Origin: a virus
UHGV virus genome: UHGV-0219032
Reading direction: 5' to 3' (one strand)
Length of the DNA: 64,000 nt
In this document: piece by piece, positions 1,607-32,498 of the stretch
Numbering within the stretch: position 1 is the first letter of the stretch
Layout of the letters: each line of letters starts with the position of its first letter
The notes under the pieces: generated by a model
What the model saw: only the letters and a program-made list of their open reading frames with translations
Told to the model about the DNA's origin: nothing
Database searches by the model: none
Translations under genes and position numbers: made by a program

Positions 1607-2737
1607 TTATTTAATTAATTTTTCAAGATATTCTAAAGATGTTTCTGTTGTATTAAATATTTTTAATAAATCTTTTGGTATATCTTTTAAATATTTATAT
1701 GATAAATGTTCTTCGGTATTTAAACCAATAATACTTCCTTCTCTATTTTGATATCTCATACTCCTAATCATAAATGGTATATTTAAATAAATATATTGAG
1801 ATTTAATATTATTTTTACTTAAATATGGGTATAAATCATTATTAGCTGATATAGGGTCGATTGCATATAGATTTATTTTATTTTTATCAAAAGATGATTC
1901 ATCAGCCCAAGAAACATAACCTTTTGGACTACAATATACAGCTATTGCATTTTTTCTATTTTTCTGCCAAAAATCATCATCAACAAATATGTGAGTGTTA
2001 ATATCATTTGGGTCATCTTCTCTAATAACTCTTGTAGTATAAGATTTTACAGCATGAAATTTATCTGGGTATTGTTCAATTAATTTATTTATAAGTGTAG
2101 ATTTACCACTTGCTGATTTTCCCATAATACATATTATACTACCATTAAAATCATTTTCTTTAATTTCAGAAAGATTATCCATAGTATCTAATAATTTACA
2201 ATATAGTTCCCATGTTTTTGTTGCATCACATAAAGCTGTGTGCATAGCATCATCTTCTTTTGACAAATTAAAATATTTAACCATATTTTCTAAACTAACA
2301 TTTTTTGTAGTAATAATTCCAGCATCTGATAGGAATCTTGCTATTGTACAAGTATCTATATTTCTATAAGATACATATTTTTCCCATTCTTCTTTTCCTA
2401 TATAGTGATGTATAAAACTTAAATCAAATCCAACATTATGACCTATTACAGTAGGTTTTTGATTTTCACATAAAGCATATAATGTTTTAATAAAATGTAT
2501 TACATGTTCAAAAGTATATTTGGCTTCACTATCATGTTGAACTAAATCTATTTTATTTGTTTTTAATGCCCCTATGGAAACATTATATGTATCATATTTA
2601 AATTTAAACTCATTAAATGCTATTGGTTCTAATTTTCCTTTTTCACATAATAATATAGCTAATGTTAGCATTTGATTTCTTTGTGGTACTAATCCAGTTG
2701 TTTCACAGTCTATAACTAAATATTTATCTTTTTTCAT
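1607..2737 (-). CDS. DnaQ-like DEDD 3'-5' exonuclease fused to a P-loop guanylate-kinase-like (dNMP kinase-like) domain
   Basis: N-term VIDCETTGL (Exo I motif) plus later H/D motifs. C-term GKSASGKSTL Walker A followed by SYTTR, as in guanylate kinases. Confidence 0.55.
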   Translation of the reverse strand: MKKDKYLVIDCETTGLVPQRNQMLTLAILLCEKGKLEPIAFNEFKFKYDTYNVSIGALKTNKIDLVQHDSEAKYTFEHVIHFIKTLYALCENQKPTVIGHNVGFDLSFIHHYIGKEEWEKYVSYRNIDTCTIARFLSDAGIITTKNVSLENMVKYFNLSKEDDAMHTALCDATKTWELYCKLLDTMDNLSEIKENDFNGSIICIMGKSASGKSTLINKLIEQYPDKFHAVKSYTTRVIREDDPNDINTHIFVDDDFWQKNRKNAIAVYCSPKGYVSWADESSFDKNKINLYAIDPISANNDLYPYLSKNNIKSQYIYLNIPFMIRSMRYQNREGSIIGLNTEEHLSYKYLKDIPKDLLKIFNTTETSLEYLEKLIK

Positions 2738-3129: not shown

Positions 3130-3978
3130 CTAGTAACTTGGTTCATTTTTTATAAAACTATTTAATTCTCTTCTATATAAATTTTTTAAACTTTTGATAA
3201 TAATATCATCTTTATTTAAATTAAATTCTTTTATCATCATATCGGAAAGAATATCAGATAACTCTATTCTCTTTTTTAAATATGATACATAAGCATCATT
3301 GATATTATCATATTCTCCAAGATGATAAGCTATTTGTTTGTTTAAAATTGGGTCATAAAACCAAGTTCTAGCAACATATTTTCCTCCTCTGATAATAACA
3401 CCAGTTTTTCCACTCGTATTTGTGTTATAATGTGTTGCTATAAAATTATTTACTCTTTCTGGAATAAATAAACATGTCTCTGGACTATATATATTTTTAT
3501 CTGATAATAAATCTTTATCAAGTACCCAACCTAATCTATAATTTGATTTATTATAAAACCAATCTGCAAAATTTTGAAAATTATACCAATCTTCATATAT
3601 AGTAACCTGTTTTCTTTGATACGACATAGACCTAGTATTTTTATTTGGATTATGAACTCTTTTTATCATACTTGTCCAAAACCAATAACAATCTTTTTCT
3701 ATTTTTGGTCTATTTCGAGATGTTCCAGTTTTATATTTTCCGTAACCTAAAAAACCAACACCACAAACACTTTTATGATTTCTATTTTTTATAGTTCCAT
3801 TTTTAAAACTACTAATTGAAACTTCTAAAACAACCTCATCTTCAAATTGAACAATAATACGATTTGCTTTATTTGATACTCCTATACATTTTACTGTATA
3901 TCCCTCATTTGTAATTTTACTAATACCTATATATTCATTCCTACTCTTAGCTCTCATAAGATACCTCTTTTTTATCAT
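3130..3978 (-). CDS. putative homing endonuclease (HNH_3-like) with C-terminal AP2 DNA-binding domain
   Basis: C-terminal TGVIIRGGKYVARTWFYDPILNKQIAYHLGEYDNINDAYVSYLKK matches the AP2 consensus (G.....GK..A.....g....lG.fdt.eeAa.aY). Central LDKD..SD.N..PE.C.FIP..VN resembles the HNH_3 motif. Free-standing between ligase and upstream genes. Confidence 0.45.
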   Translation of the reverse strand: MIKKRYLMRAKSRNEYIGISKITNEGYTVKCIGVSNKANRIIVQFEDEVVLEVSISSFKNGTIKNRNHKSVCGVGFLGYGKYKTGTSRNRPKIEKDCYWFWTSMIKRVHNPNKNTRSMSYQRKQVTIYEDWYNFQNFADWFYNKSNYRLGWVLDKDLLSDKNIYSPETCLFIPERVNNFIATHYNTNTSGKTGVIIRGGKYVARTWFYDPILNKQIAYHLGEYDNINDAYVSYLKKRIELSDILSDMMIKEFNLNKDDIIIKSLKNLYRRELNSFIKNEPSY

Positions 3979-5263
3979 CTCTTATTCTTTGAAAAACTGG
4001 AAATTGTAAACTATATTTTTTAGTTTTAGAATCCATACTTTCTTCTTTATATTTTATTTCAACTATTTTTCCAATATAATCATTTGCATTTTTTAAAAAT
4101 AACTCTCTTTGAGAATCAGTATATCCACTACCAACTCTAACTTTATTACCTTTATATTCAACTATAAATCCACCAAAATTATCTTTTAATTTTCCAATTT
4201 CATCTCCATAAAACCAATCGACTATTTTTAAATCAGAAAATTTAAATGTTTTAACTTTAATTAAACCATTATGCTTAGATTTTTTATATAAACAATCTTT
4301 ATATAACATTAAGCCTTCCAAACCACATTCATCATATTGTCTTAATAATTCATTAATCATATTTGTATCGCTACCAATATAATCAACTTTAAGAACTCTC
4401 AAATGTTTTGTCATTTTATCATTAAATGAATGTATAAAATTTATTCTTTCTGATATATATTTCATTGTAAAATTATCATTATCAAATTCATTAATTGGTA
4501 TTATATCATAAATTATAAATAAAATATCTTCTTTTTCTGGAATATATGTTTCTGAATTTACTATTGATAATGTTTTTCTAAAATTATCATTATCAGATAT
4601 ATTTTCTTTATTATTCCTAATTAGTTCTCCATCTATAAAATATTTATCTCCAAATATACTTTTTATTTCTCTAATAATAGTATCAAAACCTATATGATAT
4701 ATACCACTTCTAGCAACTAATTTTCCATGATAATATGATGCTCTAACACCATTTAATTTTTGTTGTAAAGCAAAGATTTCATCTTTTTGTAATGTTAAAT
4801 TATCAAATGGTTTACCACCTTGTATTTCCCAAGTATAAATAAGTTTTTTATTTAAAGCCTTATTAATTCCTTCACCAGTAATTCCTAATTTTAAATTTTG
4901 TATTGATAAATTTTTAATAAAGTCAGATATATCATTTCCATATTGTTCTTTTATTTCATTGATATAGTTTTGGATAGCTCTTATAGAATTATCAGTTCCG
5001 CTACAATTCATAATGAAAAATAAAAAATCATTAAATTCATTAAATGCTCTTATTGTCTCAATAGTATTAAATTTTTTACTTAAAGATTTGCTACCTATAT
5101 TAGTTTTTATTCTAGGGTCAAATTGAATAGATAAAATTACAGTTAAAATATTTAATACATCTTGATTTTGTGTATTATATATTTCTTTTATGTATTCAGA
5201 TTTCAACTTACTACCTTTTAATTCTGATAAATGCTTAATTATCTGATAAACTTTTTGTATCAT
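3947..5263 (-). CDS. ATP-dependent polynucleotide ligase (DNA or RNA ligase), motif I KLNGVR
   Basis: Nucleotidyltransferase motifs: KLNGVR (motif I with N instead of D, as in many RNA ligases), EGLMLYK (IV), LIKVK (V). Confidence 0.55.
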   Translation of the reverse strand: MIQKVYQIIKHLSELKGSKLKSEYIKEIYNTQNQDVLNILTVILSIQFDPRIKTNIGSKSLSKKFNTIETIRAFNEFNDFLFFIMNCSGTDNSIRAIQNYINEIKEQYGNDISDFIKNLSIQNLKLGITGEGINKALNKKLIYTWEIQGGKPFDNLTLQKDEIFALQQKLNGVRASYYHGKLVARSGIYHIGFDTIIREIKSIFGDKYFIDGELIRNNKENISDNDNFRKTLSIVNSETYIPEKEDILFIIYDIIPINEFDNDNFTMKYISERINFIHSFNDKMTKHLRVLKVDYIGSDTNMINELLRQYDECGLEGLMLYKDCLYKKSKHNGLIKVKTFKFSDLKIVDWFYGDEIGKLKDNFGGFIVEYKGNKVRVGSGYTDSQRELFLKNANDYIGKIVEIKYKEESMDSKTKKYSLQFPVFQRIRDDKKEVSYES

Positions 5264-6116
5264 TTTCCACCTCTTTTATTCTATTTATTGCTATATCAAA
5301 ATAATTTTCGTCAAGCTCTATTCCTATAAATTTTCTTTTTAGTTTTTTACAAGCAACACCTGTTGTGCCACTACCCATAGTAAAATCTAAAACCAAATCT
5401 CCTTCTTTTGTATATGTTTTAATTAAATATTCCATTAATTCTAATGGTTTTTGTGTTGGGTGTAAATTATTATTTTTTGAACCATTAATTTTTATAACAG
5501 ATTTTGGGTTTCTATAACCATCATCTTCATTTCTTACATGCTTAACTTTTCCATAATGACATTCATTTCTATCAATAATAGAATTTACACTTTTTCTTCT
5601 ATCAACTTTTGCATATTTATCATAATGTCTATATGTTAAAAAATCCAACATTTCTTTTTTATTATAATTCATAATTTCATCTATCTCTATTACTTTATAT
5701 CTTTGAGGATTATAATTTATTTTTCCGTCTGAAAAAACAACAATATTTTCATGATATTTTAAAGGATTACTTTTTGCACTCATAAAATTTGTTGCATATT
5801 GTTTTTCCCATATCCATTCATATTTAAATTCTGAAATATTACTACATATTAATTGACTTGTAAAAGGTTGTGAACCAAATAAAATTATGGGTGTATTTTC
5901 TTTTCTTAATAATTTTAAACTATGCCACATTTTATCAAATGGAATAATACTATCCCATTTACAAGCTGTTGTTCCATATGGTGGGTCTGTAATAATACAA
6001 TCTATCTTTATATTGTTATCTATTAACAAATCCATAACTTTAAGACAATCACCATTAAATAATCTTATGTCATTTTCCTCATAAAAATTTTTAATCATTA
6101 TTATCACCCTCTTCAT
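5235..6116 (-). CDS. DNA methyltransferase, N6-adenine/N4-cytosine, beta class
   Basis: ITDPPYGT (motif IV) early, FTMGSGTTGVAC (motif I, FxGxG) late: permuted beta-class order. Confidence 0.75.
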   Translation of the reverse strand: MKRVIIMIKNFYEENDIRLFNGDCLKVMDLLIDNNIKIDCIITDPPYGTTACKWDSIIPFDKMWHSLKLLRKENTPIILFGSQPFTSQLICSNISEFKYEWIWEKQYATNFMSAKSNPLKYHENIVVFSDGKINYNPQRYKVIEIDEIMNYNKKEMLDFLTYRHYDKYAKVDRRKSVNSIIDRNECHYGKVKHVRNEDDGYRNPKSVIKINGSKNNNLHPTQKPLELMEYLIKTYTKEGDLVLDFTMGSGTTGVACKKLKRKFIGIELDENYFDIAINRIKEVENDTKSLSDN

Positions 6117-7474: not shown

Positions 7475-8250
7475 TTTTTCCTCCTATATTTTTTAATCTA
7501 TCTATTGAATATTCAAATTGCTTATCACTTAATTCTATTCCTATATATTGCATATTAATATTTATGCAAGAAACACCAGTAGTTCCTGTTCCATTAAAAC
7601 AGTCTAGTATTAAGTCATTTTCTTTATAATAGAAATCTAATAATTGATTGCATAAATCAGATGAATATGTAGCTTTGTTTAAATCACAAGAACCATCATT
7701 ATTTTTAGCTTCAATAAAATTATAAACATTTTCATAATTTGGTTGACCTGTTTTTCTATAACTTTTTATTTTTTTTATTTGTGTTGAAAGTTAAAAATTC
7801 ATCTTTTCTAACAAATACATATATAAATTCAACAATTCTAGTTCTTTTATTTTTAGACATAGCATTTGGTGTAGCTGTTTTCTTTTTCCAAACTATTATA
7901 TCTGCTAATGTATAATTTGTATCTGTAATTATCTTGGAAACTGTTAATGGCATAGCTTCAGTATTTTCACTACCATATGACATATTCCATAATACACAAG
8001 TATCTTTTTTAAGTAATTTATCAAATCTTTTAAATATTTCACAACACCAAGATGTATATTCATCATTACTCATTCCATCATTATAGACATCATAACCTCT
8101 GTCATCTTGATTTGGTCTTATTATATTATATGGTGGAGATGTTAATACACCATCTATTTGAACATTATTTGCTATTAATAAATCCATTACTTCAATACAA
8201 TCACCATTAAAAAATTTAATATTATTTTCTGAATAAAAATTATTAATCAT
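7461..8250 (-). pseudogene. beta-class DNA methyltransferase interrupted by a frameshift in an A8 homopolymer (T8 on plus strand at 7769-7776)
   Basis: Track ORF 7756-8250 has LTSPPY (motif IV) but stops right after the A8 run. The next frame (7461-7755) encodes LILDCFNGTGTTGVSC (motif I FxGxG). Removing one A joins them into a ~262-aa MTase. Confidence 0.6.
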
Positions 8251-8347: not shown

Positions 8348-11300
8348 TTAAAATTCTACTTTACTCATAGATTTTATATAAGTATCAAATATTCCAGTTC
8401 CACCTTGCCATTTACCATCTACTAATTGTTTTCTTTCTTTAGTAATTTTATCATTTACAACTATAATATCATTATCATCTAATCCATCTAATATATCCTC
8501 TCTTTTAATTTTATATGTTTCAATCTCTCCATTTCTCATATTAAAACCTTTAAGGAAATATTGACTAGGAAATGGGTGTTCCAATGATAATACAAATAGT
8601 GCATCAAAATCTAACCAATCCATCTTTTTTGATGTTCTACCACATATCATTAGTTCATTTTTCATTTTTTCAACATATTCAAAATCATCTTCTGGATTTA
8701 ATATATTTATTTGTTCTTTAATTAAACTTATTTTTTTATCTTTAGTTTTTTGAGTTACTTTTTCGCTATATTTACAAGATTTATCATTAAAAAATATTTC
8801 AATAATATTCAATAAATATTTCTGTTTACCAAAATTTCTAAAAAAATCAATTTTAATTAATATTGATAAATCTTTTTGAGATAAAGATAATTTGTTTTCT
8901 TTAACAAATATTAATAAATCTAAGAATGTTCCAATATCATTTGGAATACATTTAAGAGCATTATCTGCATTTTTAGATACACCTTTTAATCCAGATAATC
9001 CTTCATATATAATATTTTTATCTTTATCATAAGAATATTCTTGAGAAAAGTTACCAAATACAGGTGATTCAATCACTATATCTGTTTCCTCTTTAATATA
9101 TGTATATATTGATTTTATTTTTTCTCTTTTACTTTTAAATGTATTTAATGATGCTGTTATAAATTCTTTTGGATAATAACATCTAAAATATGCACATAAA
9201 AATCCAGTAATAGTATATGGTCTTGCATGTGCAATATTGAAAGCATAGTTTTCAGCATCTCTCATTATTCTAGCTACATGATTTAAAACTTTATCTGTAT
9301 TTTCTCGAGTTTCTCCATAATGTTCCATAAAATATTTTGGGAATCTTTCCCTTAATTCTACTACTAATTTTTCAGTTCCGCCTTTTTTAGAAATTGTTTT
9401 TCTCGCATAGTCAGATTCAGCATTGGAATATCCACTAAATTCAGTTAAGAAATTCATAATATCTTCTTGATATATTAAATATCCATTATTATATGCAAAT
9501 CTCTTATTGACAATATCACTACCTGTATCATTTATTTTTCCACTAAATAATCCCTCTCTAATAGAATCTCCACATGGTCTAATAACTCCCGATACCGCTG
9601 TTGCGATATCTAACTTTTTCATTTTATCATTATTTTTCAAAGCTCTTTTTAAATGATTAAATGCTTGGTCTTTTTCAAATTGGAATATCATAGTTCCATG
9701 TTTAGAATTTAAAATATGATTCCAAACATTCATATCTTCAAAGTCTATATCATCTGGAGATGGTCTTTTAATACCTAAATATTCACATACTCTATTTATT
9801 GCTCCTATATTAGCTAATCCGAGAGCATCTACCTTTACATAACCCAACTCATCTACCTCTCTCATATCTAATTGAGTTACCCTTCTTCTTCTATTTAATT
9901 GTTTATCAAATGATGTTATGATTCCTATTTCTTTTTCTATATCTAAATCAGATACTAACATTCCACCAGCATGTATTCCAATAGACTTAATAAATCCATC
10001 TAAATCATCTACTTTTGCAAAGAAATCAGCATATTCTTCATCATCTCTATATTCACTAATATTTGCTAATATCTTTTCAACTTCACTTATTTCCATACCA
10101 TAACTTCTACCCATAGAACGAATAGCACCTTTTTCAAGGTCTTTACCAAATGTAATTATTTCAGAACAATTTAAACCATCTCTACCATAAAACCATTCTT
10201 TAGCTTCTTGTCTCCTATCACTTTCTATATCTGTATCAACATCGGGTAAACTTATTTTTTCTGGATTCATAAATCTAAAGAATAATGTTCCAAATTTAAT
10301 AGGGTCTATTTCTGTTATACCCATTAAATATGCAACTATTGAACCATTTACAGAACCTCTACCAAATCCTGGATATATACCATGTTCTCTTAATCCATTA
10401 ACCCAATCTGCAATCATTAACATATATGATGATGATTTAAGATTATGAATTACTTGAATTTCTTGTACAATTTTTTTAGCTATCTCATCAACACATTGAT
10501 TGCTATATACTGATAATTTCTTTTCATTAAATTTTTTTATACAAATTTCTGACATTTTTTTCGTTGCATCTTTATATATATTAGGCATTTTAAATCCTTT
10601 TTCTATGGTATATTCTTCAGCCATATCATATATTATATTTGTATTTTCTAATGCTTCTTTTGCTATTTCTGGAGATATACCAATATTTAATAATGCTGTG
10701 TACATTTCAGAATAACTTTTTAATTCTAAATCTAATCCATCTTCATAAGAGAATGGCATTTTTTCAGCCTTTTGTTTTTCTTTTCTTAATTCTCCAGACA
10801 TTTTATTATGATAATGAACGTCATTTGTAGCTACTATTTTAAATCCATATTCTCTACTTAGTTCAATAATAAAATTATTATGTTCGATTTGCTCTGACAT
10901 ATTATGTGGTTGTATCTCTAAGAAAAATCTATCTTTATTTTGTAACCCCCATTCTAATAATCTTTGGAAAACATAACTATCCTTATTATTTTTTCTTAAT
11001 GCTGTCGCTAAACATGCTGTTGATACCGCTACATTTTTACATTCAAATAATTCATCTATAAAAAATGTTGGTCTTTTATAAAAATGATTATCCTTATAAG
11101 CATTAGATATTAATTGATTTATTTCTTTTCTACCTTCATTATTTAATCCATAAACTAAAATATGATAGTTGTTTTTATCATCTTCATTAGCTCTAGTATA
11201 TCCTTCAAAAGCATGAACATATTTAAATCCACCCTCTTCTATTTCTTTTTTCTTTTTATACCAACCTAAAGTTGCTCCATGTTCAGTTATTATAATACCA

Positions 11301-11431
11301 TGTAATCCTTTTTCTTTTGCCACAGTAATATAATCTTTTGTACTACTTGCACTATCAGTTAGTATATTATTACTTAATTGTGAATGTATGTGCATTGATA
11401 CATATTTCATATTATTTATAATACCTCCCAT
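8348..11431 (-). CDS. dnaE: DNA polymerase III alpha subunit (DnaE/PolC-family, PHP domain N-terminus)
   Basis: N-terminal PHP motif SMHIHSQLS...GIIITEHG; 1027 aa; overall PolIII-alpha architecture. Confidence 0.75.
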   Translation of the reverse strand: MGGIINNMKYVSMHIHSQLSNNILTDSASSTKDYITVAKEKGLHGIIITEHGATLGWYKKKKEIEEGGFKYVHAFEGYTRANEDDKNNYHILVYGLNNEGRKEINQLISNAYKDNHFYKRPTFFIDELFECKNVAVSTACLATALRKNNKDSYVFQRLLEWGLQNKDRFFLEIQPHNMSEQIEHNNFIIELSREYGFKIVATNDVHYHNKMSGELRKEKQKAEKMPFSYEDGLDLELKSYSEMYTALLNIGISPEIAKEALENTNIIYDMAEEYTIEKGFKMPNIYKDATKKMSEICIKKFNEKKLSVYSNQCVDEIAKKIVQEIQVIHNLKSSSYMLMIADWVNGLREHGIYPGFGRGSVNGSIVAYLMGITEIDPIKFGTLFFRFMNPEKISLPDVDTDIESDRRQEAKEWFYGRDGLNCSEIITFGKDLEKGAIRSMGRSYGMEISEVEKILANISEYRDDEEYADFFAKVDDLDGFIKSIGIHAGGMLVSDLDIEKEIGIITSFDKQLNRRRRVTQLDMREVDELGYVKVDALGLANIGAINRVCEYLGIKRPSPDDIDFEDMNVWNHILNSKHGTMIFQFEKDQAFNHLKRALKNNDKMKKLDIATAVSGVIRPCGDSIREGLFSGKINDTGSDIVNKRFAYNNGYLIYQEDIMNFLTEFSGYSNAESDYARKTISKKGGTEKLVVELRERFPKYFMEHYGETRENTDKVLNHVARIMRDAENYAFNIAHARPYTITGFLCAYFRCYYPKEFITASLNTFKSKREKIKSIYTYIKEETDIVIESPVFGNFSQEYSYDKDKNIIYEGLSGLKGVSKNADNALKCIPNDIGTFLDLLIFVKENKLSLSQKDLSILIKIDFFRNFGKQKYLLNIIEIFFNDKSCKYSEKVTQKTKDKKISLIKEQINILNPEDDFEYVEKMKNELMICGRTSKKMDWLDFDALFVLSLEHPFPSQYFLKGFNMRNGEIETYKIKREDILDGLDDNDIIVVNDKITKERKQLVDGKWQGGTGIFDTYIKSMSKVEF

Positions 11432-12018: not shown

Positions 12019-12612
12019 TTATAATTTTTCTAAAAAATCTTTTCTTGCATTGGTATTATTCCAATATTCTTTTAATTCTTTTTTAAATGCTTCTGTTTCA
12101 TTATATCCACAACAATCAAATTCTGGACATAGACCACCTCTGTAAATACATTCCTTAACACAAACAGTTCTTAATTCTGGTTCATTAGGAGCAACAACTT
12201 CATCTAAAAACTTAGTCCATGCTTCTCTTGTTTCTGGTGAAGCTTTAGTACATAATCTTTTTCTTGATATATAAATAATAGCTTGTGCATTAGCTTCACA
12301 TTCATGGTTTACAGGTTCATCTTGTCTTAAAGCATTTCTATTTATACCAGTTCTATCTGTTCTTCTTGTTGAGACAAAATGTTCAATTCCATGTTTATGT
12401 CTAACAAAATGAACAGACACCCAACTTTTTAAATTTAACCATCTCCAACCAATTATTAATTTTCTAATTGGTGAATGTTCTGATATTAATAATCTTCTTT
12501 TATATTCTGATTCTGGGTATTTTCCTTTATTTAAATTAATAGTATTTAATGTGGCATTTTTAATAGTTTGCCATCTATCAACATAATCTCTCAATTCAAC
12601 TTTAAATGACAA
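12019..12612 (-). CDS. diverged ThyX-like protein (flavin-dependent thymidylate synthase-like) with C-terminal cysteine cluster
   Basis: VRHKHGIEHFVSTRR resembles the ThyX signature RHR-x7-S-xRY (RHK-x7-S). Located between nrdG and folD. Extra CxxC..CC cysteines are atypical. Confidence 0.3.
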   Translation of the reverse strand: MSFKVELRDYVDRWQTIKNATLNTINLNKGKYPESEYKRRLLISEHSPIRKLIIGWRWLNLKSWVSVHFVRHKHGIEHFVSTRRTDRTGINRNALRQDEPVNHECEANAQAIIYISRKRLCTKASPETREAWTKFLDEVVAPNEPELRTVCVKECIYRGGLCPEFDCCGYNETEAFKKELKEYWNNTNARKDFLEKL

Positions 12613-13090
12613 TTTTATCCTCCAATAATTTAGTTATATCAATTCCATTTTTATATATTTTTTGATTAGAAGAACCAAAATATCTATAATCTCCTTTTAA
12701 TTCTTCTTTATAAGCTCCACATATAATATAGTCAACATAACTAGCAATATTTAAATTTTTAATATAATTCCACTCGTAACCACTCCATAACCATATATCT
12801 TTATTTGGATATTTTGTTTTTACATATTCACATAATTCAATAACATCATTTACATTATATGGGGCTAATGGTTCTCCACCTAATATGGATAATCCACTTA
12901 TATATTCATTATCTAATAATTCTATAATTTTATTTTTTGTATTTTCATCAAAATTTTTACCATAATTTTTATCCCAAAGTTGAGAGTTGTGGCAACCATT
13001 ACATTGTAATGGACAGCCACTAACCCAAAGTGTGATTCTAATACCATCACCATTATTAAAATCACAAGTATCTATTTGAGTATATTTCAT
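12602..13090 (-). CDS. nrdG: anaerobic ribonucleotide reductase activating protein (radical SAM)
   Basis: GCPLQCNGCHN radical-SAM-like cysteine motif; size 162 aa; immediately downstream of nrdD. Confidence 0.8.
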   Translation of the reverse strand: MKYTQIDTCDFNNGDGIRITLWVSGCPLQCNGCHNSQLWDKNYGKNFDENTKNKIIELLDNEYISGLSILGGEPLAPYNVNDVIELCEYVKTKYPNKDIWLWSGYEWNYIKNLNIASYVDYIICGAYKEELKGDYRYFGSSNQKIYKNGIDITKLLEDKIVI

Positions 13091-13098
13091 TATACCAC

Positions 13099-15177
13099 CT
13101 ACATTGATTTTCTATCTTTTATTTCTGCCATTTTTGCATCATTAAATGTTCTATCTCCATTTTTTCTACTAAATCCAAGATAACCACATGTTCTATTAAT
13201 TTCAGTAATATTTTTACTTCCACAATGTGGGCAAGTTTCTCCCCAATCAGTTCCAGTTGTTCCACAATCCTCACATTGACAGGCATTAAAATTAACACCT
13301 TGATAGAATCCTAAATCCATTCCTCTTCTAATAATATCTTTTAATGCTTTAATATTTTTAGTATTTGGTATTCTAACATATTGAATGTGTCCGCCTGTAA
13401 CTAATTCAAATATATCTATTTCTTTATCCTGTTTTTCAAAAGGTGTTATTTCTTCGCATACATGACAATGAAATGAATTACTGAAATAATCTTTATCAGA
13501 TACACCTTTTATAGTTCCATATTTCTTTCTAAATTGTTCTACTTGAGTTCCACATAAACTTTCTGCTGGTGTACCATAAAGTGCATATAAGTAACCATCT
13601 AAAATTTTAAATTCATCAACTTTATTTTTTATATATTTAACAGTTGAATAAGCGAAACTATTATCTTCAGAAATAGGTTTTCCTGTTGCCAAAACTGATA
13701 ATTCATTTAAAGCTGTAATACCAAAACTAGCTGTTGCTGATTTTAATATAGGTTTTATTTTATCAGTTGGTTTTAAATTACCACCATATGCACCACCCTC
13801 ACAAAACATTAGTGGGTTAGAACTTGCTTCAGCTTTTCCTAAATATTCATATCTTTGAATATGTAATTCTCTTATCATTTGTAAATAATAATCTAAAACC
13901 TCATAAAATGGTTTATTTTCATATTTAGCTTTCATGTATATCATTGGTAAATTTAAACTAATAGCTCCTATATTAAATCTTCCAATAAATTGTAATTCTC
14001 CATTTTCATCTCTATAATCTGATAAATAAGCTCTACAACCCATAGGACTGACCCACTTACCTTCTCTTTTATGTAATTTTGGAGATAAGAAATCTGGGTA
14101 CATACATTTAGAAGAGCATTGTACTGCTAAATCAAATAACCATTCATATTTTTTACCTTTTCCATGTATATCTGGATTATATAAGAAAACAAGTTTAGGG
14201 AATATAAGATTTTTCTTATGTCCTTTATCTCCATGTCCTTCCATTCTAACTTCAAGTATTGCTTTGCATATATCAGCTTCTAATTGATTTTGAACATCTC
14301 CAAATGTTAAAGTAGTAAATGGATATGAACCTCTAGCACTAACAACTGTATTCATTTTTATTTCAAAACCTTGTAGAACTTGTTTTAATTCTATATATAC
14401 TCTTTGTTTAACTAATTCTAAACACTCTATATCCGACATATTAGAAATTTTACGTATATATTCATATTCTTTACGAATAGACATTTCATAATATTTTACA
14501 AGTATATTATGTACTTCTGGAATTGTATGACCTCCAAAATGTTGTGCGGATATAATTTGAACTATATCTCCCATTTGTCCAACCGCTGTTCTTATATCCT
14601 TAGGTTCAGTGTACTTAATATCCTCAAGTTTAAAACCACCATTCAATATAGCTTTCATATCACACAATGTACAATTATATTGCGGAAGCAACATATCAGA
14701 CAAATCATGAATATAAATATATCCATCTTTCATAGATTGAATAACATCAATAGGCAAAAACATTTTTTGATACATTTCTTTAGCAAATATTTTAGCTATT
14801 TCAGTTCTTTTTGTAGATATATACCTAGTATTACTATTACTGTTACTTCTATCAACTTCAGTAAGCATTGAATGTACTTGTCTTTCTATATCATTGATAG
14901 TAGAATAAACAAATTCTTTTTTATAATTTCTATAATCTTTATATGATTTTGCAACTGATGGAGCAATTAAATCTAAAGACTTTTCAACATAACTATGAAT
15001 AGTATCTACTGAAATATTAGCATTATCACCTATCCATTCAACAACATTATTACATATTTCTTCTTCCTGAATATTTGATAATACATATCCTATTCTTTTT
15101 GCTGATTTTCTAATTGCTGATTTTATTTTATCTTCATTATAATCTTCAATAGTTCCATTCTTTTTAATTACTTGCAT
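13099..15177 (-). CDS. nrdD: anaerobic ribonucleoside-triphosphate reductase
   Basis: N-terminal ATP-cone (VIKKNGTIEDYNEDKI), C-terminal zinc ribbon CQCEDCG...CPHCGS and glycyl-radical motif RTCGYLG. Confidence 0.85.
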   Translation of the reverse strand: MQVIKKNGTIEDYNEDKIKSAIRKSAKRIGYVLSNIQEEEICNNVVEWIGDNANISVDTIHSYVEKSLDLIAPSVAKSYKDYRNYKKEFVYSTINDIERQVHSMLTEVDRSNSNSNTRYISTKRTEIAKIFAKEMYQKMFLPIDVIQSMKDGYIYIHDLSDMLLPQYNCTLCDMKAILNGGFKLEDIKYTEPKDIRTAVGQMGDIVQIISAQHFGGHTIPEVHNILVKYYEMSIRKEYEYIRKISNMSDIECLELVKQRVYIELKQVLQGFEIKMNTVVSARGSYPFTTLTFGDVQNQLEADICKAILEVRMEGHGDKGHKKNLIFPKLVFLYNPDIHGKGKKYEWLFDLAVQCSSKCMYPDFLSPKLHKREGKWVSPMGCRAYLSDYRDENGELQFIGRFNIGAISLNLPMIYMKAKYENKPFYEVLDYYLQMIRELHIQRYEYLGKAEASSNPLMFCEGGAYGGNLKPTDKIKPILKSATASFGITALNELSVLATGKPISEDNSFAYSTVKYIKNKVDEFKILDGYLYALYGTPAESLCGTQVEQFRKKYGTIKGVSDKDYFSNSFHCHVCEEITPFEKQDKEIDIFELVTGGHIQYVRIPNTKNIKALKDIIRRGMDLGFYQGVNFNACQCEDCGTTGTDWGETCPHCGSKNITEINRTCGYLGFSRKNGDRTFNDAKMAEIKDRKSM

Positions 15178-16004
15178 TAATCCTCCTTATAAAACTTATA
15201 TACATTTTTAAATAATGATAATGTTGTAAGTATTCCAACACCACCAGGAACAGGTGTATAATTAATATTTGGATAATCTTTTTCAATTATATCTAATATT
15301 GGATATAATTCGCCATGTAATTTACCATTTTCTCCAACAAAAATACCAGTATCTATTATTGTTTTATTTTTAAAACATCTTAATCCATCTAAAACATTAG
15401 AAGTTAAATAATTATCTTTTCCTGTTGCTAGAATTATTATATCATTATCAAAAAATGATTTTTGTATATCTAATGGTGTTGATTTTGATGTTAAAATTTT
15501 TAAACTAGCAACCTTATCTATTAATAAACTAGCTAAAGGTTTTCCTACTAATTTTCCTCTTCCAATTATTGCTACATTTAAATTACATAAATTATCTCCA
15601 TGTAAATAATACAAATAATCTATAATACCTTTTGGTGTTGCTGGAACTACACCATTTATATTTCCATTATATATATCTCCATATTGAAAAAATCCATCTA
15701 CATCAAAACCATAATCTAATTCTTGATTCTCATACTCGATTAATAATTCTGTATTATCAACAGGTAATTGTAATATACAAGGATTATACATATGGAATCT
15801 AGGTGGAAATAAACCATCAACAACTTCAACATTAACACCCAACTCTTGTCCTACCTTAATTTTATTTTTAAGGTAGGATTTAGTTGCTCCATTTTTATCA
15901 TTAGAATAAATAGTTAATGTTGGATTTTGTTTTTCTATTTTTTTAAAATTTTCTTTTAATATCTCTTTTTCTTTTTCAACATACTCTCTAACATTTAACT
16001 TCAT
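15177..16004 (-). CDS. folD: bifunctional methylene-THF dehydrogenase/methenyl-THF cyclohydrolase
   Basis: VAIIGRGKLVGKPLASLL (Rossmann), TPVPGGVGILT near C-terminus: FolD hallmarks. Confidence 0.7.
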   Translation of the reverse strand: MKLNVREYVEKEKEILKENFKKIEKQNPTLTIYSNDKNGATKSYLKNKIKVGQELGVNVEVVDGLFPPRFHMYNPCILQLPVDNTELLIEYENQELDYGFDVDGFFQYGDIYNGNINGVVPATPKGIIDYLYYLHGDNLCNLNVAIIGRGKLVGKPLASLLIDKVASLKILTSKSTPLDIQKSFFDNDIIILATGKDNYLTSNVLDGLRCFKNKTIIDTGIFVGENGKLHGELYPILDIIEKDYPNINYTPVPGGVGILTTLSLFKNVYKFYKED

Positions 16005-16013
16005 AATTATCTC

Positions 16014-16523
16014 CTATTTTCCAGTTGAACCAAAACCATTAGAACCTCTATTAGATTCATTTACTTCAGATACTATTTTTATATTTTTATATTTTCTAAT
16101 AGCATTTATAACAACTTGAGCAATTCTTTCTCCTTTTTTAATATCAAATCCAATATCACTTGAGTTATTTAATATAACACCTATTTCTCCTCTATAAGCA
16201 TTATCAATAGTTCCTAAGATAGCAACCTTTGATTCTTTTAATGAAGCTCCACTTCTTGGTCTTAATTGTGCTTCAATAATTTCAAGATATTCACCTTTAT
16301 CTTCTGGTTGTGGTAATTCTAAATATACACCAGTTGTTATTAAAAATGTTTTATGAGGATTAATTCTTACAGATTGTCCTTCATTTAATAAAACTTTTTG
16401 ACCTAATTCATGATTTGGTTTTACCTCTCTATAACCTAATGCACATACATCATATCCACTATCAGTTTCATGAGCCGAATTAAACATAGCTCCATTATCT
16501 AATTTTACTTTTATTTGTTCCAT
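16014..16523 (-). CDS. dut: dUTP pyrophosphatase
   Basis: dUTPase motifs SGYDV, RPRSGASL, GTIDNAYRGEIG, RIAQVV, C-terminal RGSNGFGSTG. Confidence 0.85.
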   Translation of the reverse strand: MEQIKVKLDNGAMFNSAHETDSGYDVCALGYREVKPNHELGQKVLLNEGQSVRINPHKTFLITTGVYLELPQPEDKGEYLEIIEAQLRPRSGASLKESKVAILGTIDNAYRGEIGVILNNSSDIGFDIKKGERIAQVVINAIRKYKNIKIVSEVNESNRGSNGFGSTGK

Positions 16524-16579: not shown

Positions 16580-17578
16580 CTATAATTTTATCATACAATT
16601 TTCAAATAATTTTTCAAATATCTCCTTTCCCATATCAGTAGGAGAATTTTTACTATCTATTGGTAAATATTCTTTTTTCTCATCATATATAGCATATACT
16701 TCCATATCTGGAAACCATGATTTTATATCATTAGCTCTTTTAATATATTCTATAATATGTTTATCCTCATCATAAGCTAACACAACAACTCTTATACCTA
16801 AGTCATATAAAAGATTTATTTGGTTTTTATCAATATGAGACATACCAACACTTACTATTGGTCTAAATCCAAATGAATGAGCTTGTAAAGTTGATTTTTC
16901 GGCTTCAACTAAAACACAATATCCACATTCTTTAATATATTTTTGATTTTCATATAAACCATATAAATGTTCCCTTTTATTAAAAGGTAAAAGTGAAATA
17001 TATTTATATTTATAATCTTTTGAAATTTTCCAATTTGCTCTAGCTGTATTACCAACTATTTCACCTTTTAAATTTCTCCAAAGAATAACTACTCTATCAC
17101 TTTCTTCATCATATCTTATATCAAATTCACATTGGGTTGCTAAATTAATACCATCATTTCTAAACATAGTTGAAATGATAGGTTTATATTTTGATATTTC
17201 AACTTCAGAATAAATATTATCCCCTTTTATAAGATTTAATTTATCATTTAAATCTTTAAAAATACAATTATCATTTCTTTTAACAACATTTATGTTTTGA
17301 TTAGATATTCCTAATTTATTCTTTAAATCTATAATGGCATCTTTAAAACACATTCCAGTTTTATTCATTATTGCTGTTAGAATGTCTCCATGAGTATCAT
17401 CAGACCATCTAACATAAGATAATGAATTAATGTCTATTTGACAAGAACCTTTTGATTCATCATCAAATGCAAACATTACTCTTTTATTATTAGAATGTAT
17501 GTTTGAAAAACCATAAGACCTTATTATATCTTCTATTTTATTTGTATCACCACATAATAAGGCTTTTACAGCTTCCAT
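16580..17578 (-). CDS. DnaG-like primase, Toprim domain
   Basis: Toprim signatures VLVEAEKST (E) and LAYDED (DxD). Confidence 0.45.
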   Translation of the reverse strand: MEAVKALLCGDTNKIEDIIRSYGFSNIHSNNKRVMFAFDDESKGSCQIDINSLSYVRWSDDTHGDILTAIMNKTGMCFKDAIIDLKNKLGISNQNINVVKRNDNCIFKDLNDKLNLIKGDNIYSEVEISKYKPIISTMFRNDGINLATQCEFDIRYDEESDRVVILWRNLKGEIVGNTARANWKISKDYKYKYISLLPFNKREHLYGLYENQKYIKECGYCVLVEAEKSTLQAHSFGFRPIVSVGMSHIDKNQINLLYDLGIRVVVLAYDEDKHIIEYIKRANDIKSWFPDMEVYAIYDEKKEYLPIDSKNSPTDMGKEIFEKLFENCMIKL

Positions 17579-26785: not shown

Positions 26786-29326
26786 TTAGAATGATTTTTC
26801 TTGAATACTCTCTGTAAAACCAACCTCAAATAATGTTCCAAATTCTCCATTAAATTGATAAATAGTTGGAACTATTTTTGCACCATATCTATTCTTAGGC
26901 AAAAAGAATACAAGATATTTTTTATTACTTTCTAGCTCTTTAAACTCTTTTACGTATTTTCCAGTTATTTCATCTTTTTTTATTTTAAATACTTTAATTT
27001 CATTCTTTTGACCTGGATATTCATCTGGGTATAACTCTCTTCCAGTTATTAAAATATCTAAAATTTCAACTATTTGTTTAGAGCCAGATAGACAAGATTC
27101 ATCATATATTCTTTTCATGTTTTGCTTTAAATATGATGCTATTTGATAAGATGCCATAACATGAACATTTAATTTTCTAGCTAACTCATATATATTTCTT
27201 GATTGCTGAACCAGTTTACCAACAGCAAGTTTATCTCCAGCATCTTCTGATTTCATGGTGTCTATTAAAAATTTAGTAAATCCCTTATGTGAGAATCTTC
27301 TCATAAGAATATTAAATTCAGCTATACTATATCTACTTACACAATATAAAACTAATTTATCATTATAAGTAACATCAATATATCTTTGAGCTTCGGCAAT
27401 TTTCATCATATATTCTTCATACTTTTCTTTTTCTTTTGTTTTTATCATATCCAATTCATTTAATTTTGTTCTGGTTAAATCATAATACTTTAAGTGTTTT
27501 GTTAATGTTCTTATTAATAACATATCCTTAAAATCATCTATTGCTGATTCATTGGAGTATATAAAAACTTTTTCTCCTTTATCTAAGAAATCTAACATAA
27601 TTTCATTATAGTTAATTGTAGTATTATGAGTTACAATCATATTATCTGTTAGGTATGTATGAGTTGGAGAATCAACCATTATACATTGCATTTCTTTTTC
27701 TCCAATATATTCTATGTTAGTTATAGCTAATAAATCTGTTCTTCTTTTTATCTTTCTATTTTGTGGAACTCTTGATTTATGTTTATCAGAATAAAATATT
27801 TCATCATAAGTTGAAATATTAACTATATAGCATTTTCCAAATTTATAATCTCTATTATCCTCTGTGTATGTTGCTCTATACCCCAATGTATGACACAATT
27901 GAATAATATCATCTCTTAACCTAATTGACGTGGTTGTTATGTTTTTATTCCCGCTGATAGAATTTACACAACCATCTGTATCGAATAATCCTCTTAATAA
28001 ATCCATTCTCTGCTCTATCGAACCACTCATGTACTCAATAGGTATAAATTTTTCATGACTTCCCAATCCGAAAACTTGCAATCTTTTTAACTCTCTAATT
28101 ATGTCATTTTTTAATGGGTTGGTCTGATTGCTAATATTATATGTATAGTTATTTGCATTATTTTTTGTAATTTTATAACCCATAGGTAATCTCTGTTTTA
28201 TTCTCTCAACAATATCTAACTCATTACAAGAAAATTCAATTCTAGTTTTTATACTTCCATCTCCTAATAGACAGCCAAAGATATATGGGTCTATAAAATA
28301 TTCTTTTTGTGTATATTGTAATGGTTTATTAACAGGAATAAAAGTCTGATATGTATTTCCAGATATAATTTTTCTTTTCATTATTTCTTTTAATGTTTGA
28401 ACTCTCCAATCATATTTCCCATTCTTTAATCTCCATAAATTATTATTTACCCATAAATGCTCATCACAACACTCGACAGTTGAGCCATCTTTGAATGTAA
28501 TTTTATATGATGGTTTCATACCCTGAGGGAATATTCCAGTTACATTATGAAGTTCTCCATTCATATCGTATATTTTATCGCCAATTTTAATATCTCCCAT
28601 TCTAACATAACCATTTTTCGTAAACACAAGACTATCAAGAGGTTGTGCTTTACCATTATTCGTTGGCATAGCCAACATAGACATATTACCATTGTGCATA
28701 CCTCTAGTAGCTTTACTAATTGAGAATAGATTATAAGACATTCCTCTACCGACACCATTAATTTTAGATTGTATATAATCATTATCTATTCTTAATATAA
28801 CAGGTTTAGTAGTGCTTACATCATTACAATCTCTAGCTGTTTCCAATGTATCTTCAATCTTAAAAATAATATCTTCCAACGATTTTGTTTCTATATCATT
28901 ATGTAACATACATATAGCTTCATACAATCCTCTATAAGTAGCTAATTTAGCATTAGCTTTCATTAATCCCTCAAAATGTGTTTCAAAGTTATTTGGAGAG
29001 AAATTTCTTCTTAAAGAATTTAAATGACCCATACCATTTAATGATATAAAATCATTTTTAAATTGTTCCCCTAATCTACTTAAAGCGGATTGTACACTAC
29101 CAGTATCAAATTCTGTTGCTTTATGATTATACATATCATTTAATAAATCATAATATGCTAAACCATCTTTTGTATGGAATAGATTTCTTCTACCTTGTAC
29201 CTCAACCATTAAAGATAAATCATTAACTAGAGTTCCTATTACTCTAGCTTCATGGTCTGGAATTTCACTACATAAATGTTGTGGGTATTCTATTTGCATA
29301 TTATTATACGTAAATGTTAAATTCAT
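26786..29326 (-). CDS. DnaB-like replicative helicase precursor containing an intein with LAGLIDADG endonuclease domain
   Basis: Extein Walker A LAMPTNNGK|...|TT (spliced PTNNGKTT). Insert has intein blocks and two LAGLIDADG motifs (YIFGCLLGDGS, RGLFDTDGCV). It ends MIVTHN followed by T. Confidence 0.65.
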   Translation of the reverse strand: MNLTFTYNNMQIEYPQHLCSEIPDHEARVIGTLVNDLSLMVEVQGRRNLFHTKDGLAYYDLLNDMYNHKATEFDTGSVQSALSRLGEQFKNDFISLNGMGHLNSLRRNFSPNNFETHFEGLMKANAKLATYRGLYEAICMLHNDIETKSLEDIIFKIEDTLETARDCNDVSTTKPVILRIDNDYIQSKINGVGRGMSYNLFSISKATRGMHNGNMSMLAMPTNNGKAQPLDSLVFTKNGYVRMGDIKIGDKIYDMNGELHNVTGIFPQGMKPSYKITFKDGSTVECCDEHLWVNNNLWRLKNGKYDWRVQTLKEIMKRKIISGNTYQTFIPVNKPLQYTQKEYFIDPYIFGCLLGDGSIKTRIEFSCNELDIVERIKQRLPMGYKITKNNANNYTYNISNQTNPLKNDIIRELKRLQVFGLGSHEKFIPIEYMSGSIEQRMDLLRGLFDTDGCVNSISGNKNITTTSIRLRDDIIQLCHTLGYRATYTEDNRDYKFGKCYIVNISTYDEIFYSDKHKSRVPQNRKIKRRTDLLAITNIEYIGEKEMQCIMVDSPTHTYLTDNMIVTHNTTINYNEIMLDFLDKGEKVFIYSNESAIDDFKDMLLIRTLTKHLKYYDLTRTKLNELDMIKTKEKEKYEEYMMKIAEAQRYIDVTYNDKLVLYCVSRYSIAEFNILMRRFSHKGFTKFLIDTMKSEDAGDKLAVGKLVQQSRNIYELARKLNVHVMASYQIASYLKQNMKRIYDESCLSGSKQIVEILDILITGRELYPDEYPGQKNEIKVFKIKKDEITGKYVKEFKELESNKKYLVFFLPKNRYGAKIVPTIYQFNGEFGTLFEVGFTESIQEKSF
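27623..28648 (-). mobile_element. intein (about 342 aa, begins with Ala; LAGLIDADG homing endonuclease domain) within helicase P-loop
   Basis: Boundaries inferred: AQPLDSLVFTKNGYVRMGDIKIGDKIY (N-terminal splicing block) to ...IVTHN|T. Confidence 0.6.
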
Positions 29327-31480: not shown

Positions 31481-31723
31481 ATGAGTAAAATTATTAAAAG
31501 AGTATTTAGCAAATCGAAAGCAAATGATTTAATTTCTATGGGTAATACTCTGTTAAAAACAGAAAAAGATTATATAAAACCAAAAAGAGAAATTTATATA
31601 TTTGAAAGAACTGATAAATTAATCAAAGATTTGTCCGCTCTTCATAATATATATATAAAAAATAAAACAATAGGAGTGCGAAATGAAAAATATAATAGTG
31701 GAAAATTATTTAACAATTCATAA
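31481..31723 (+). CDS. hypothetical protein (80 aa)
   Basis: First ORF after promoter, RBS ggaggg. Confidence 0.35.
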   Translation: MSKIIKRVFSKSKANDLISMGNTLLKTEKDYIKPKREIYIFERTDKLIKDLSALHNIYIKNKTIGVRNEKYNSGKLFNNS

Positions 31724-32498
31724 AGAATTAATAGGAAAACAAATTAATTTATCAAAACCAAATTCTATATTATTATTTATGGAAGTTTGTAGAATAAAAC
31801 AAATGGAGATTAAAGCATTACAAAATAATTTCCAAAAAAATATAGATAATGATTTAATAATTAATAAGAGTAGATTGGAAAATATAATTGATAAAGCATT
31901 AATAAAACAAAATATAAAAATTCAAAATCTTATTGATGATTTTAATAATGGCTCATACTTCATAAATAAAGATGGAGAGATTATTGAAATCATAGAATTT
32001 ATAAATTTTTATAAAAATACTGGAGAAATTGAAGTAGTATTTAATATGGAAAATTTTATAAAATATTTTATAAATATAAAAGACAATTTTACAAAATTAC
32101 CATTAGAATATTTTAAGGGGATTAAAAGTAAAAATGTTACTATGTTGTTAATGTATATAATGAAATATAGTAATGTGAAAAATGTATTTATACCAAATAG
32201 TGATTTATTATTTTTATTAAATATAAATAAAAATAATAAATTATCTCACTTGAATCAATCTATAAAAAGAGTCATAGAACAAATTAAAAAAATAAATTTA
32301 GATGAGTTAAAAAAATTAAATATAGAAAAGAATAAAAATAATAACTTTGATATTAAATTTTCTAGTTTTGAAATAAATATTATAATGGAAAATAAAAAAG
32401 ATATAATTATTAAAAAAACAGAAAATAAAAAAGATGAAAATTGCAATTTTACAGAGAGTGAATTAGCAATTTATACAGGAGGTTATAATGATAATTGA
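31683..32498 (+). CDS. hypothetical protein, candidate iteron-binding replication initiator (Rep_3-like?)
   Basis: Position directly downstream of iterons; N-terminus VENYLTIHKELIG...SILLFMEVCRI loosely resembles plasmid Rep N-termini. Weak. Confidence 0.25.
   Translation: MKNIIVENYLTIHKELIGKQINLSKPNSILLFMEVCRIKQMEIKALQNNFQKNIDNDLIINKSRLENIIDKALIKQNIKIQNLIDDFNNGSYFINKDGEIIEIIEFINFYKNTGEIEVVFNMENFIKYFINIKDNFTKLPLEYFKGIKSKNVTMLLMYIMKYSNVKNVFIPNSDLLFLLNINKNNKLSHLNQSIKRVIEQIKKINLDELKKLNIEKNKNNNFDIKFSSFEINIIMENKKDIIIKKTENKKDENCNFTESELAIYTGGYNDN

Follow-up and report, generated by a model that had tools for sequence, protein, structure and literature searches.

The stretch analysed here, 64,000 nucleotides (nt) of the virus genome UHGV-0219032 (hereafter the window; 25% G+C), carries on its minus strand a single open reading frame (ORF) in which an intact DEDDh 3'-5' exonuclease domain is followed by a short linker and a P-loop domain of guanylate kinase fold (Table 1). 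A GGAGG Shine-Dalgarno sequence lies 7 nt 5' of the ATG of this fused ORF. The minus-strand half of the window is a replication and nucleotide-metabolism module, with genes for a DnaE-type Pol III alpha, NrdG, NrdD, a FolD-like protein, dUTPase and primase together with an AAA_24 protein, a PD-(D/E)XK nuclease, RuvC, an ATP-dependent ligase and several DNA methyltransferases; a 332-amino acid (aa) ORF at 16580-17578, suspected of encoding a thymidylate synthase or hydroxymethylase, turned out to be a primase gene. The fused gene and the Pol III alpha gene both lie in this module, 5.6 kb apart. A megablast search with 20 kb of the window found no related phage in GenBank.

Table 1. Features of the fused exonuclease-kinase gene and of associated genes in the window (nucleotide positions in the window; residue numbers of the fused protein).
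Feature	Position	Strand	Basis or remark
Whole fused ORF	1607..2737	-	376 aa plus stop codon (1607-1609), ATG start; ORF list
DEDDh (DnaQ/RNase T-like) 3'-5' exonuclease domain, aa 1-190	2168..2737	-	Pfam, phrog_192, fold match
Exo I motif D10-C-E12 (VIDCETTG)	2702..2710	-	Translation and family alignment
Exo II motif GHNVGFD (D105)	2423..2443	-	Translation and family alignment
Exo III motif H166-TALC-D171 (the "h" of DEDDh)	2225..2242	-	Translation and family alignment
Inter-domain linker EIKENDFNG, aa 191-199	2141..2167	-	Replaces the stop/start junction of split L008; predicted local distance difference test (pLDDT) ~65
Guanylate-kinase-fold (d)NMP kinase-like domain, aa 200-376	1610..2140	-	Family profile, AlphaFold, Foldseek
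P-loop GKSASGKS, aa 206-213	2099..2122	-	S, G and K invariant in the 47-sequence family
NMP-binding motif SYTTRVIR, aa 232-239	2021..2044	-	S232, R236 and R239 correspond to yeast guanylate kinase S34, R38 and R41
His249, at the guanylate kinase Tyr50 position	1991..1993	-	Profile alignment to 1GKY; His in 47/47
Val267, at the guanylate kinase Glu69 position	1937..1939	-	Profile alignment; acidic in 6/47 only
LID region RSMRYQNR...EEHL (R325, R328, R332, E342, H344)	1703..1765	-	H344 replaces guanylate kinase Arg146
DnaE-type Pol III alpha with PHP domain	8348..11431	-	Pfam; alignment to Taq Pol III alpha 2HPI
Nucleotide-supply genes NrdG, NrdD, FolD-like protein, dUTPase	12602..16523	-	Context of the fused gene

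By its sequence, the N-terminal half is a DnaQ-clade DEDDh 3'-5' exonuclease. The Pfam family RNase_T (PF00929) matched aa 7-179 with 42.2 bits, where 24 is the cutoff (E=1.6e-10), and phrog_192 ("DNA polymerase exonuclease subunit") matched this half at 2.7e-25; an apparent extension of the phrog_192 match into the kinase half proved to be alignment over-extension when the two halves were scanned apart. In Foldseek the predicted exonuclease fold resembled RNase T (template modelling (TM) score 0.70-0.72, target-normalised) and the DnaQ domain 8H18 (0.78). The DEDDh catalytic set is complete (D10, E12, D105, H166 and D171), and across an alignment of 57 family members D10, H166 and D171 are invariant and E12 is kept in at least 90% of sequences.

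For the C-terminal half, a single-sequence search matched guanylate kinases over the first ~60 residues only, and Pfam Guanylate_kin (PF00625) gave 27.6 bits (cutoff 25.2) over profile positions 4-61 only. PHROG 1815 ("guanylate kinase") matched 155 residues at E=9e-18, and a profile built from 47 family members matched solved guanylate kinases over the full length (1.4e-11). The AlphaFold model of this half (pLDDT 92.6) retrieved guanylate kinases as all of its top 50 Foldseek matches in the PDB, with TM scores of 0.49-0.70 (~0.65-0.70 against ligand-bound forms), and its best viral structural match was the "guanylate kinase" of Fusobacterium phage Fnu1 (QBJ04083.1, PHROG 1815; TM 0.85), a member of the same family at 36% identity that is likewise associated with a DNA polymerase gene. 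Unlike the window protein, the Fnu1 kinase has no exonuclease domain. An earlier interpretation made from the letters alone (the sequence-only reading) had proposed a DEDDh exonuclease fused to a guanylate-kinase-like P-loop domain, and Pfam, the family profile and Foldseek bear this out at a level well beyond chance; the motifs on which it relied, DCETTG and GKSASGKS...SYTTR, are present in the region of aa 10-12 and at aa 206-213 and 232-239, and the domain search and structure prediction it had put forward as checks both find kinase homology in the C-terminal half.

Comparison with guanylate kinase (EC 2.7.4.8; yeast Guk1, 1GKY/1EX7) revealed a shared framework and an altered active site, the residue equivalences to 1GKY resting on profile-to-sequence alignment. 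Beyond the fold itself, the phage family keeps the Ser, Gly and Lys of the P-loop, the Ser, Thr and Arg of SxTTR and the next Arg (S-x-T-T-R-x-x-R), the equivalent of Asp100 and three arginines of the LID. It departs from guanylate kinase in the form of the P-loop (GKSxxGKS against GPSGxGKS) and at the positions of Tyr50, Glu69 and Arg146, Glu69 being the residue of guanylate kinase that binds guanine N1/N2. The window kinase has His249, Val267 and His344 at these positions. Among the 47 family sequences the Arg146 position is His in 44, and the Glu69 position is non-acidic in 41 and hydrophobic in most members. The kinase half also failed the NCBIfam guanylate kinase equivalog TIGR03263 (31.2 against 160.45 bits). 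Because this cutoff was failed and the Tyr50, Glu69 and Arg146 positions are changed, the domain should not be filed as a guanylate kinase. These features point instead to a protein of guanylate kinase fold that is probably catalytically active and is probably a (d)NMP (deoxynucleoside or nucleoside monophosphate) kinase with a base specificity not restricted to guanine.

Most relatives of the kinase half stand alone, as proteins of ~180-200 aa; they come from uncultivated phages and the Fnu1 group of Fusobacterium phages, and the family comprises more than 60 clusters at 50% identity. Pattern scans of 185,579 representative bacterial and archaeal genomes found no relatives.

The fused ORF is not an assembly artefact, since an identical architecture occurs in two homologues, P0001 at 99% identity and P0002 at 79% identity, the latter on four contigs from different samples with unchanged gene order. 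Between the window and L005, a locus that also carries the fused gene, the ratio of nonsynonymous to synonymous substitution rates (dN/dS) came to 0.14 in the exonuclease half and 0.41 in the kinase half, indicating purifying selection on both halves, and the catalytic residues of both halves are intact in the diverged fused copy too. Identity between these two loci is uneven (Pol III alpha 96%, exonuclease half 90%, kinase half 70%), which suggests that the kinase half evolves faster or has recombined.

In a HMMER search of 1.84 billion representative proteins, the best 150 of 2570 matches each hit one half of the query, except P0002, which belongs to the query's own cluster. Since a match to both halves would score highest and only P0002 does so among the best 150, the exonuclease-kinase architecture appears to be confined to one small clade; Foldseek against the PDB found no solved structure spanning both domains, and the sequence-only reading was right to call the architecture unusual. 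In the full-length model (mean pLDDT 89.4, predicted TM score (pTM) 0.56) there is no confident inter-domain interface, and the protein as modelled looks like two independently folding modules on a short flexible tether.

The likely origin of the fusion can be read from the sister phage L008, which shares gene order with the window and is 85% identical to it in Pol III alpha, 65% in the exonuclease and 56% in the kinase. There the two halves are adjacent genes, encoding a 190-aa exonuclease and a 184-aa kinase. The L008 exonuclease ends GGAGGATAAATAATG and the kinase begins at an ATG within that stretch, the junction being a one-base stop/start overlap (TAATG) with an AGGAGG Shine-Dalgarno sequence inside the 3' end of the exonuclease gene. 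At the same place the window and L005 have an in-frame, poorly conserved linker. Because L008 carries the halves as separate coupled genes, the simplest history is a recent fusion of neighbouring, translationally coupled genes.

Other members of the kinase family are also joined to partner enzymes. The family domain is fused to an N-terminal NUDIX domain in P0019, to a C-terminal nucleoside 2-deoxyribosyltransferase-like domain in P0021 (6e-34) and to DUF7695 in P0004-P0007. The P0021 fusion resembles the phage fusions of SLOG/nucleoside-deoxyribosyltransferase and guanylate kinase domains described by Iyer, Burroughs and Aravind (2022, PMC9503650); their paper reports no exonuclease fused directly to a guanylate kinase, and the window protein has no SLOG domain. 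As to adjacent genes, a metallophosphoesterase gene lies directly upstream of the kinase gene at L055, and at L007 the kinase gene is directly downstream of FolD with ThyA and dUTPase genes nearby. In Fnu1-like phages the kinase gene overlaps the gene of the family A DNA polymerase, PolA. Altogether, six of nine informative contexts (window/L005, L008, L055, L057, L007 and Fnu1-like phages) have a DNA polymerase gene no more than 6 kb from the kinase gene. Close relatives of the exonuclease (38-44% identity) are followed by a gene for thymidine kinase (L021), a FolD-like protein (L022) or a CYTH-like protein (L001). The theme shared by these neighbourhoods is nucleotide salvage and supply inside replication modules, and the partners of the kinase expected to yield nucleoside monophosphates are the DEDDh exonuclease, NUDIX and possibly the metallophosphoesterase. 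IMG/VR contributed nine kinase loci and 31 mostly distant exonuclease loci (22-35% identity), and the contexts of the latter (polymerases, dUTPase, NrdDG) do not separate a proofreading from a salvage reading.

Two observations on particular loci belong here. In the Fnu1 group (L015-L020; for example L020 7977-8840) the kinase-family protein is 287 aa long, ~110 of them in a C-terminal extension with no domain assigned to it, and 14 nt of its gene are shared with the start of the family A DNA polymerase gene. At L007 and L022, FolD-like genes abut the kinase homologue or the exonuclease homologue directly.

DEDDh exonucleases release 5'-nucleoside monophosphates and NMP kinases consume NMPs. 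We tentatively favour the view, to which we give slightly less than an even chance, that the fused protein is a tethered exonuclease-to-kinase (d)NMP recycling enzyme. The exonuclease domain would remove 5'-(d)NMPs from DNA 3' ends, whether of host or damaged DNA or of primer termini at the fork, the tethered kinase would use ATP to turn the released monophosphates into diphosphates, and these would feed phage DNA synthesis. Judging from the sequences, this supposes two active domains, a kinase that takes other nucleotides in place of GMP or alongside it, and a hand-over in which one domain works on what the other releases. Recycling is favoured because the exonuclease product falls in the substrate class of the kinase, because the two halves adjoin as translationally coupled genes in L008, and because catalytic residues and purifying selection are kept in both halves. 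It is further favoured by the repeated joining of the kinase family to nucleotide-acting enzymes, by the position of close exonuclease relatives ahead of thymidine kinase or FolD-like genes, by the frequent proximity of polymerase genes and by the NrdDG, FolD-like and dUTPase genes that the window itself carries.

There is also a precedent in T4, where gp1 is the phage dNMP kinase and host-DNA breakdown feeds dNTP synthesis. T4 DexA, annotated in RefSeq as a 3'-5' exonuclease in host DNA degradation, followed by the gp1 kinase, is proposed as the functional analogue of the fused protein and lends support to the recycling view, the difference being that in T4 the two are separate, unlinked genes. 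The likeness is one of function only: DexA was considered as a relative of the exonuclease half and set aside, only the Exo I motif being alignable, and neither the structural nor the sequence searches with the kinase half retrieved gp1.

Several points weigh against recycling. The subfamilies of both halves are biochemically uncharacterised, their activities being predicted from sequence. The full-length model offers no confident interface between the domains, and therefore no structural support for channelling; the tether would raise local concentration only. The pairing of exonuclease and kinase is limited to one small clade; as a functional unit it is therefore neither ancient nor widely conserved, and the coupling could be incidental. 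Between fused copies the kinase half is the faster-evolving one (70% identity against 90% for the exonuclease), and the evidence from neighbourhoods comes from a sample of about 12 contexts rather than a systematic count. Finally, the exonuclease is closest by sequence to the proofreading domains of PolC and DnaQ, which a role in the replisome would fit equally well.

That role is the substance of the first alternative, which is possible but on the unlikely side: the exonuclease would be an epsilon-like subunit of the DnaE-type polymerase, and the kinase a passenger, an attached independent nucleotide-supply enzyme that would at most place dNDP synthesis at the fork. The exonuclease half shares the DEDDh core with E. 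coli Pol III epsilon (DnaQ) and the PolC exonuclease domain, and its best sequence-level matches are PolC exonuclease, DinG-exonuclease and DnaQ models, in keeping with the phrog_192 match. The position of the fused gene in the replication module, not far from Pol III alpha, would suit such a subunit, as would the overlap of kinase and PolA genes in Fnu1-like phages and the location of more distant exonuclease relatives near Pol III alpha or PolA (L024, L028 and L029).

The window's own polymerase speaks against this alternative. All nine metal ligands of its PHP domain (10500-11431, minus strand; H14, H16, D26, H51, E76, H90, C140, D204 and H206) have aligned counterparts in Thermus aquaticus Pol III alpha. 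PHP domains of this type can proofread alone (PMC11348249, PMC10634781). With its metal site complete, the phage polymerase could therefore proofread by itself, and from its sequence it may carry its own PHP-type 3'-5' exonuclease. The exonuclease half, for its part, missed all NCBIfam DnaQ/epsilon cutoffs by a wide margin (TIGR01406, 32.8 against 222.7 bits; NF004964, 46 against 236; TIGR00573, 25.7 against 71.5). E. coli epsilon uses an additional 57 residues at its C-terminus to bind alpha (PMC2528190); in the window protein the exonuclease core runs straight into the linker and kinase, with no epsilon-type alpha-binding tail, and stand-alone relatives (178-219 aa) end at ~190 aa, again without a tail. 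Moreover, the close exonuclease relatives at L001 and L022 have no polymerase gene within the 16-18 kb fetched, and close relatives abut thymidine kinase (L021) or FolD-like genes (L022) instead. The sequence-only reading had argued for an epsilon-like proofreader from the lack of a proofreading domain attached to Pol III alpha, an argument that is weak in view of the complete PHP site, the missed DnaQ cutoffs and the absent epsilon tail. Proofreading and recycling are not mutually exclusive.

A second alternative, which we consider unlikely, is that two adjacent independent enzymes lost the stop/start junction between them with no functional gain. Such an incidental fusion would agree with the restriction of the architecture to one cluster at 50% identity (among the best 150 of 2570 matches), with a sister phage that works with split genes, with the flexible linker and lack of a predicted interface, and with a junction sequence that differs between the two fused lineages. 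It sits less well with the persistence of the fusion down to 79% identity, with the purifying selection acting on each half, and with the recurrent fusion or adjacency of the kinase family to nucleotide-acting enzymes.

A role in counter-defence, in which the enzyme would destroy or re-route host immune nucleotides or refill nucleotide pools depleted by defence, is very unlikely. Members of the kinase family do occur in accessory regions, by Tad3, YAcAr and RNA ligase genes (L002-L004) or beside PnuC, a NadR-like AAA_28 gene and GmrSD_N (L056). PMC9503650 lists 3'-5' exonuclease fusions with SLOG domains; it reads the fusions of SLOG with this type of exonuclease and with guanylate kinase, which occur sporadically in phages, as sensing derivatives of NAD+ or ADP-ribose. 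The window gene, however, sits in the replication and nucleotide-metabolism module rather than in an accessory island, has no adjacent signalling-nucleotide enzyme, and gave only generic DEDDh matches in PADLOC, with nothing specific to the kinase.

Hardly any weight can be given to a kinase for modified nucleotides or DNA (a 5-hydroxymethyldeoxyuridine (5-hmdU) DNA kinase, a hydroxymethyl-dNMP kinase or a repair polynucleotide 5'-kinase): the loss of the guanine-binding Glu leaves room for an unusual substrate, a ThyA-like gene, dUTPase and FolD accompany the family member at L007, and Vi01-like phages have genes annotated "guanylate kinase" beside a pyridoxal phosphate (PLP) enzyme, but the fold is that of the guanylate kinases that enclose a mononucleotide, and the experimentally proven 5-hmdU DNA kinase M6 gp54 (PMC8989533) aligned to the family profile in hhalign over 24 P-loop columns only (probability 72%). 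A tblastn search of the window at E<=1e-4 found no ThyA or hydroxymethylase homologue, and no Pfam match to a dUMP hydroxymethylase or aGPT-Pplase was found in the scanned subset of ORFs, the window being ~8 kb short of the genome. As a polynucleotide kinase the domain was rejected likewise, the best phage polynucleotide kinase ranking 35th at TM 0.47, whereas the ten best guanylate-kinase-type matches reached 0.62-0.85. The polynucleotide-kinase-like repair activity and the modified-nucleotide kinase that the sequence-only reading had entertained thus find no support in these comparisons; a non-guanine substrate for the kinase half is plausible.

Going beyond the single protein, the C-terminal domain might stand for a new class of (d)NMP kinases, confined to phages, that has the guanylate kinase fold and a remodelled active site, with His at the Tyr50 and Arg146 positions and a hydrophobic residue at that of Glu69. 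Such kinases would act on bases other than guanine or on a broad range of bases, and would as a rule be tied to NMP-releasing hydrolases and DNA polymerase genes, either by fusion or within an operon. We regard this generalisation as unlikely. If it were true, the fusion would serve as a "Rosetta stone" for nucleotide recycling physically tied to the replication machinery. The case for such a physical tie has been made for many years with the T4 dNTP-synthesising complex.

The superfamilies of the two domains are well known, and nothing in them is categorically new. What appears unique, among the best 150 of 2570 matches, is their fusion, which joins an NMP producer to an NMP consumer and so lets the passing-on of substrate in phage nucleotide salvage be modelled and tested cleanly. 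The fusion also draws attention to an uncharacterised phage kinase family now annotated "guanylate kinase", which, with its rebuilt active site and its recurrent pairing with enzymes of nucleotide metabolism and polymerase genes, is a more useful lead than the fusion itself; this annotation is probably wrong on substrate, because most members are without the guanine-binding glutamate. A caution follows as well for genome annotation: because Pol III alpha here has a complete PHP metal site, a phage DEDDh exonuclease near a DnaE-type polymerase should not always be called its proofreading subunit.

Around the fused gene, several further features were recorded. Between the ligase and fused genes lies a 282-aa ORF (3130-3978, minus strand) without a Pfam match and without a positional counterpart in L005 or L008; its C-terminal part bears, by eye only, a likeness to AP2-type DNA-binding domains as in homing endonucleases. 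Three DNA methyltransferase genes lie on the minus strand within 8 kb (263-976, 5235-6116 and 7756-8250), encoding enzymes of the D12-class Dam-like, N6/N4 and phrog_67 types, which suggests heavy methylation of the phage DNA as a shield against restriction. The FolD-like protein (15177-16004, minus strand) adjoins dUTPase, and Pfam detects just its C-terminal NAD(P)-binding domain.

The region downstream of exonuclease and kinase holds PAPS-reductase-like, YAcAr and DUF488 genes in L005 (13904-15377) and L008 (13209-19629), and in L008 also nucleoside-deoxyribosyltransferase-like, PnuC-like and dCMP deaminase genes; its counterpart lies beyond the left end of the window. At L056, the NUDIX-kinase fusion P0019 (6001-7047) stands beside genes for PnuC-like, NadR-like (AAA_28), GmrSD_N, C5 methyltransferase and CCA-adding enzyme proteins, a locus that may be an NAD/nucleotide salvage island.

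The Pol III alpha gene of L008 (L008 175-4479; 1434 aa) holds an intein, whereas the window copy is without one. In the window, the UvrD-like helicase gene (32961-35522, plus strand) is split by an intein with a LAGLIDADG endonuclease, and an 846-aa ORF (26786-29326, minus strand) has LAGLIDADG/Hom_end matches too. At the junction of the divergent minus- and plus-strand gene blocks, 31683-32498 (plus strand) gave a weak match to Rep3_N (plasmid-type replication initiator, WH1).

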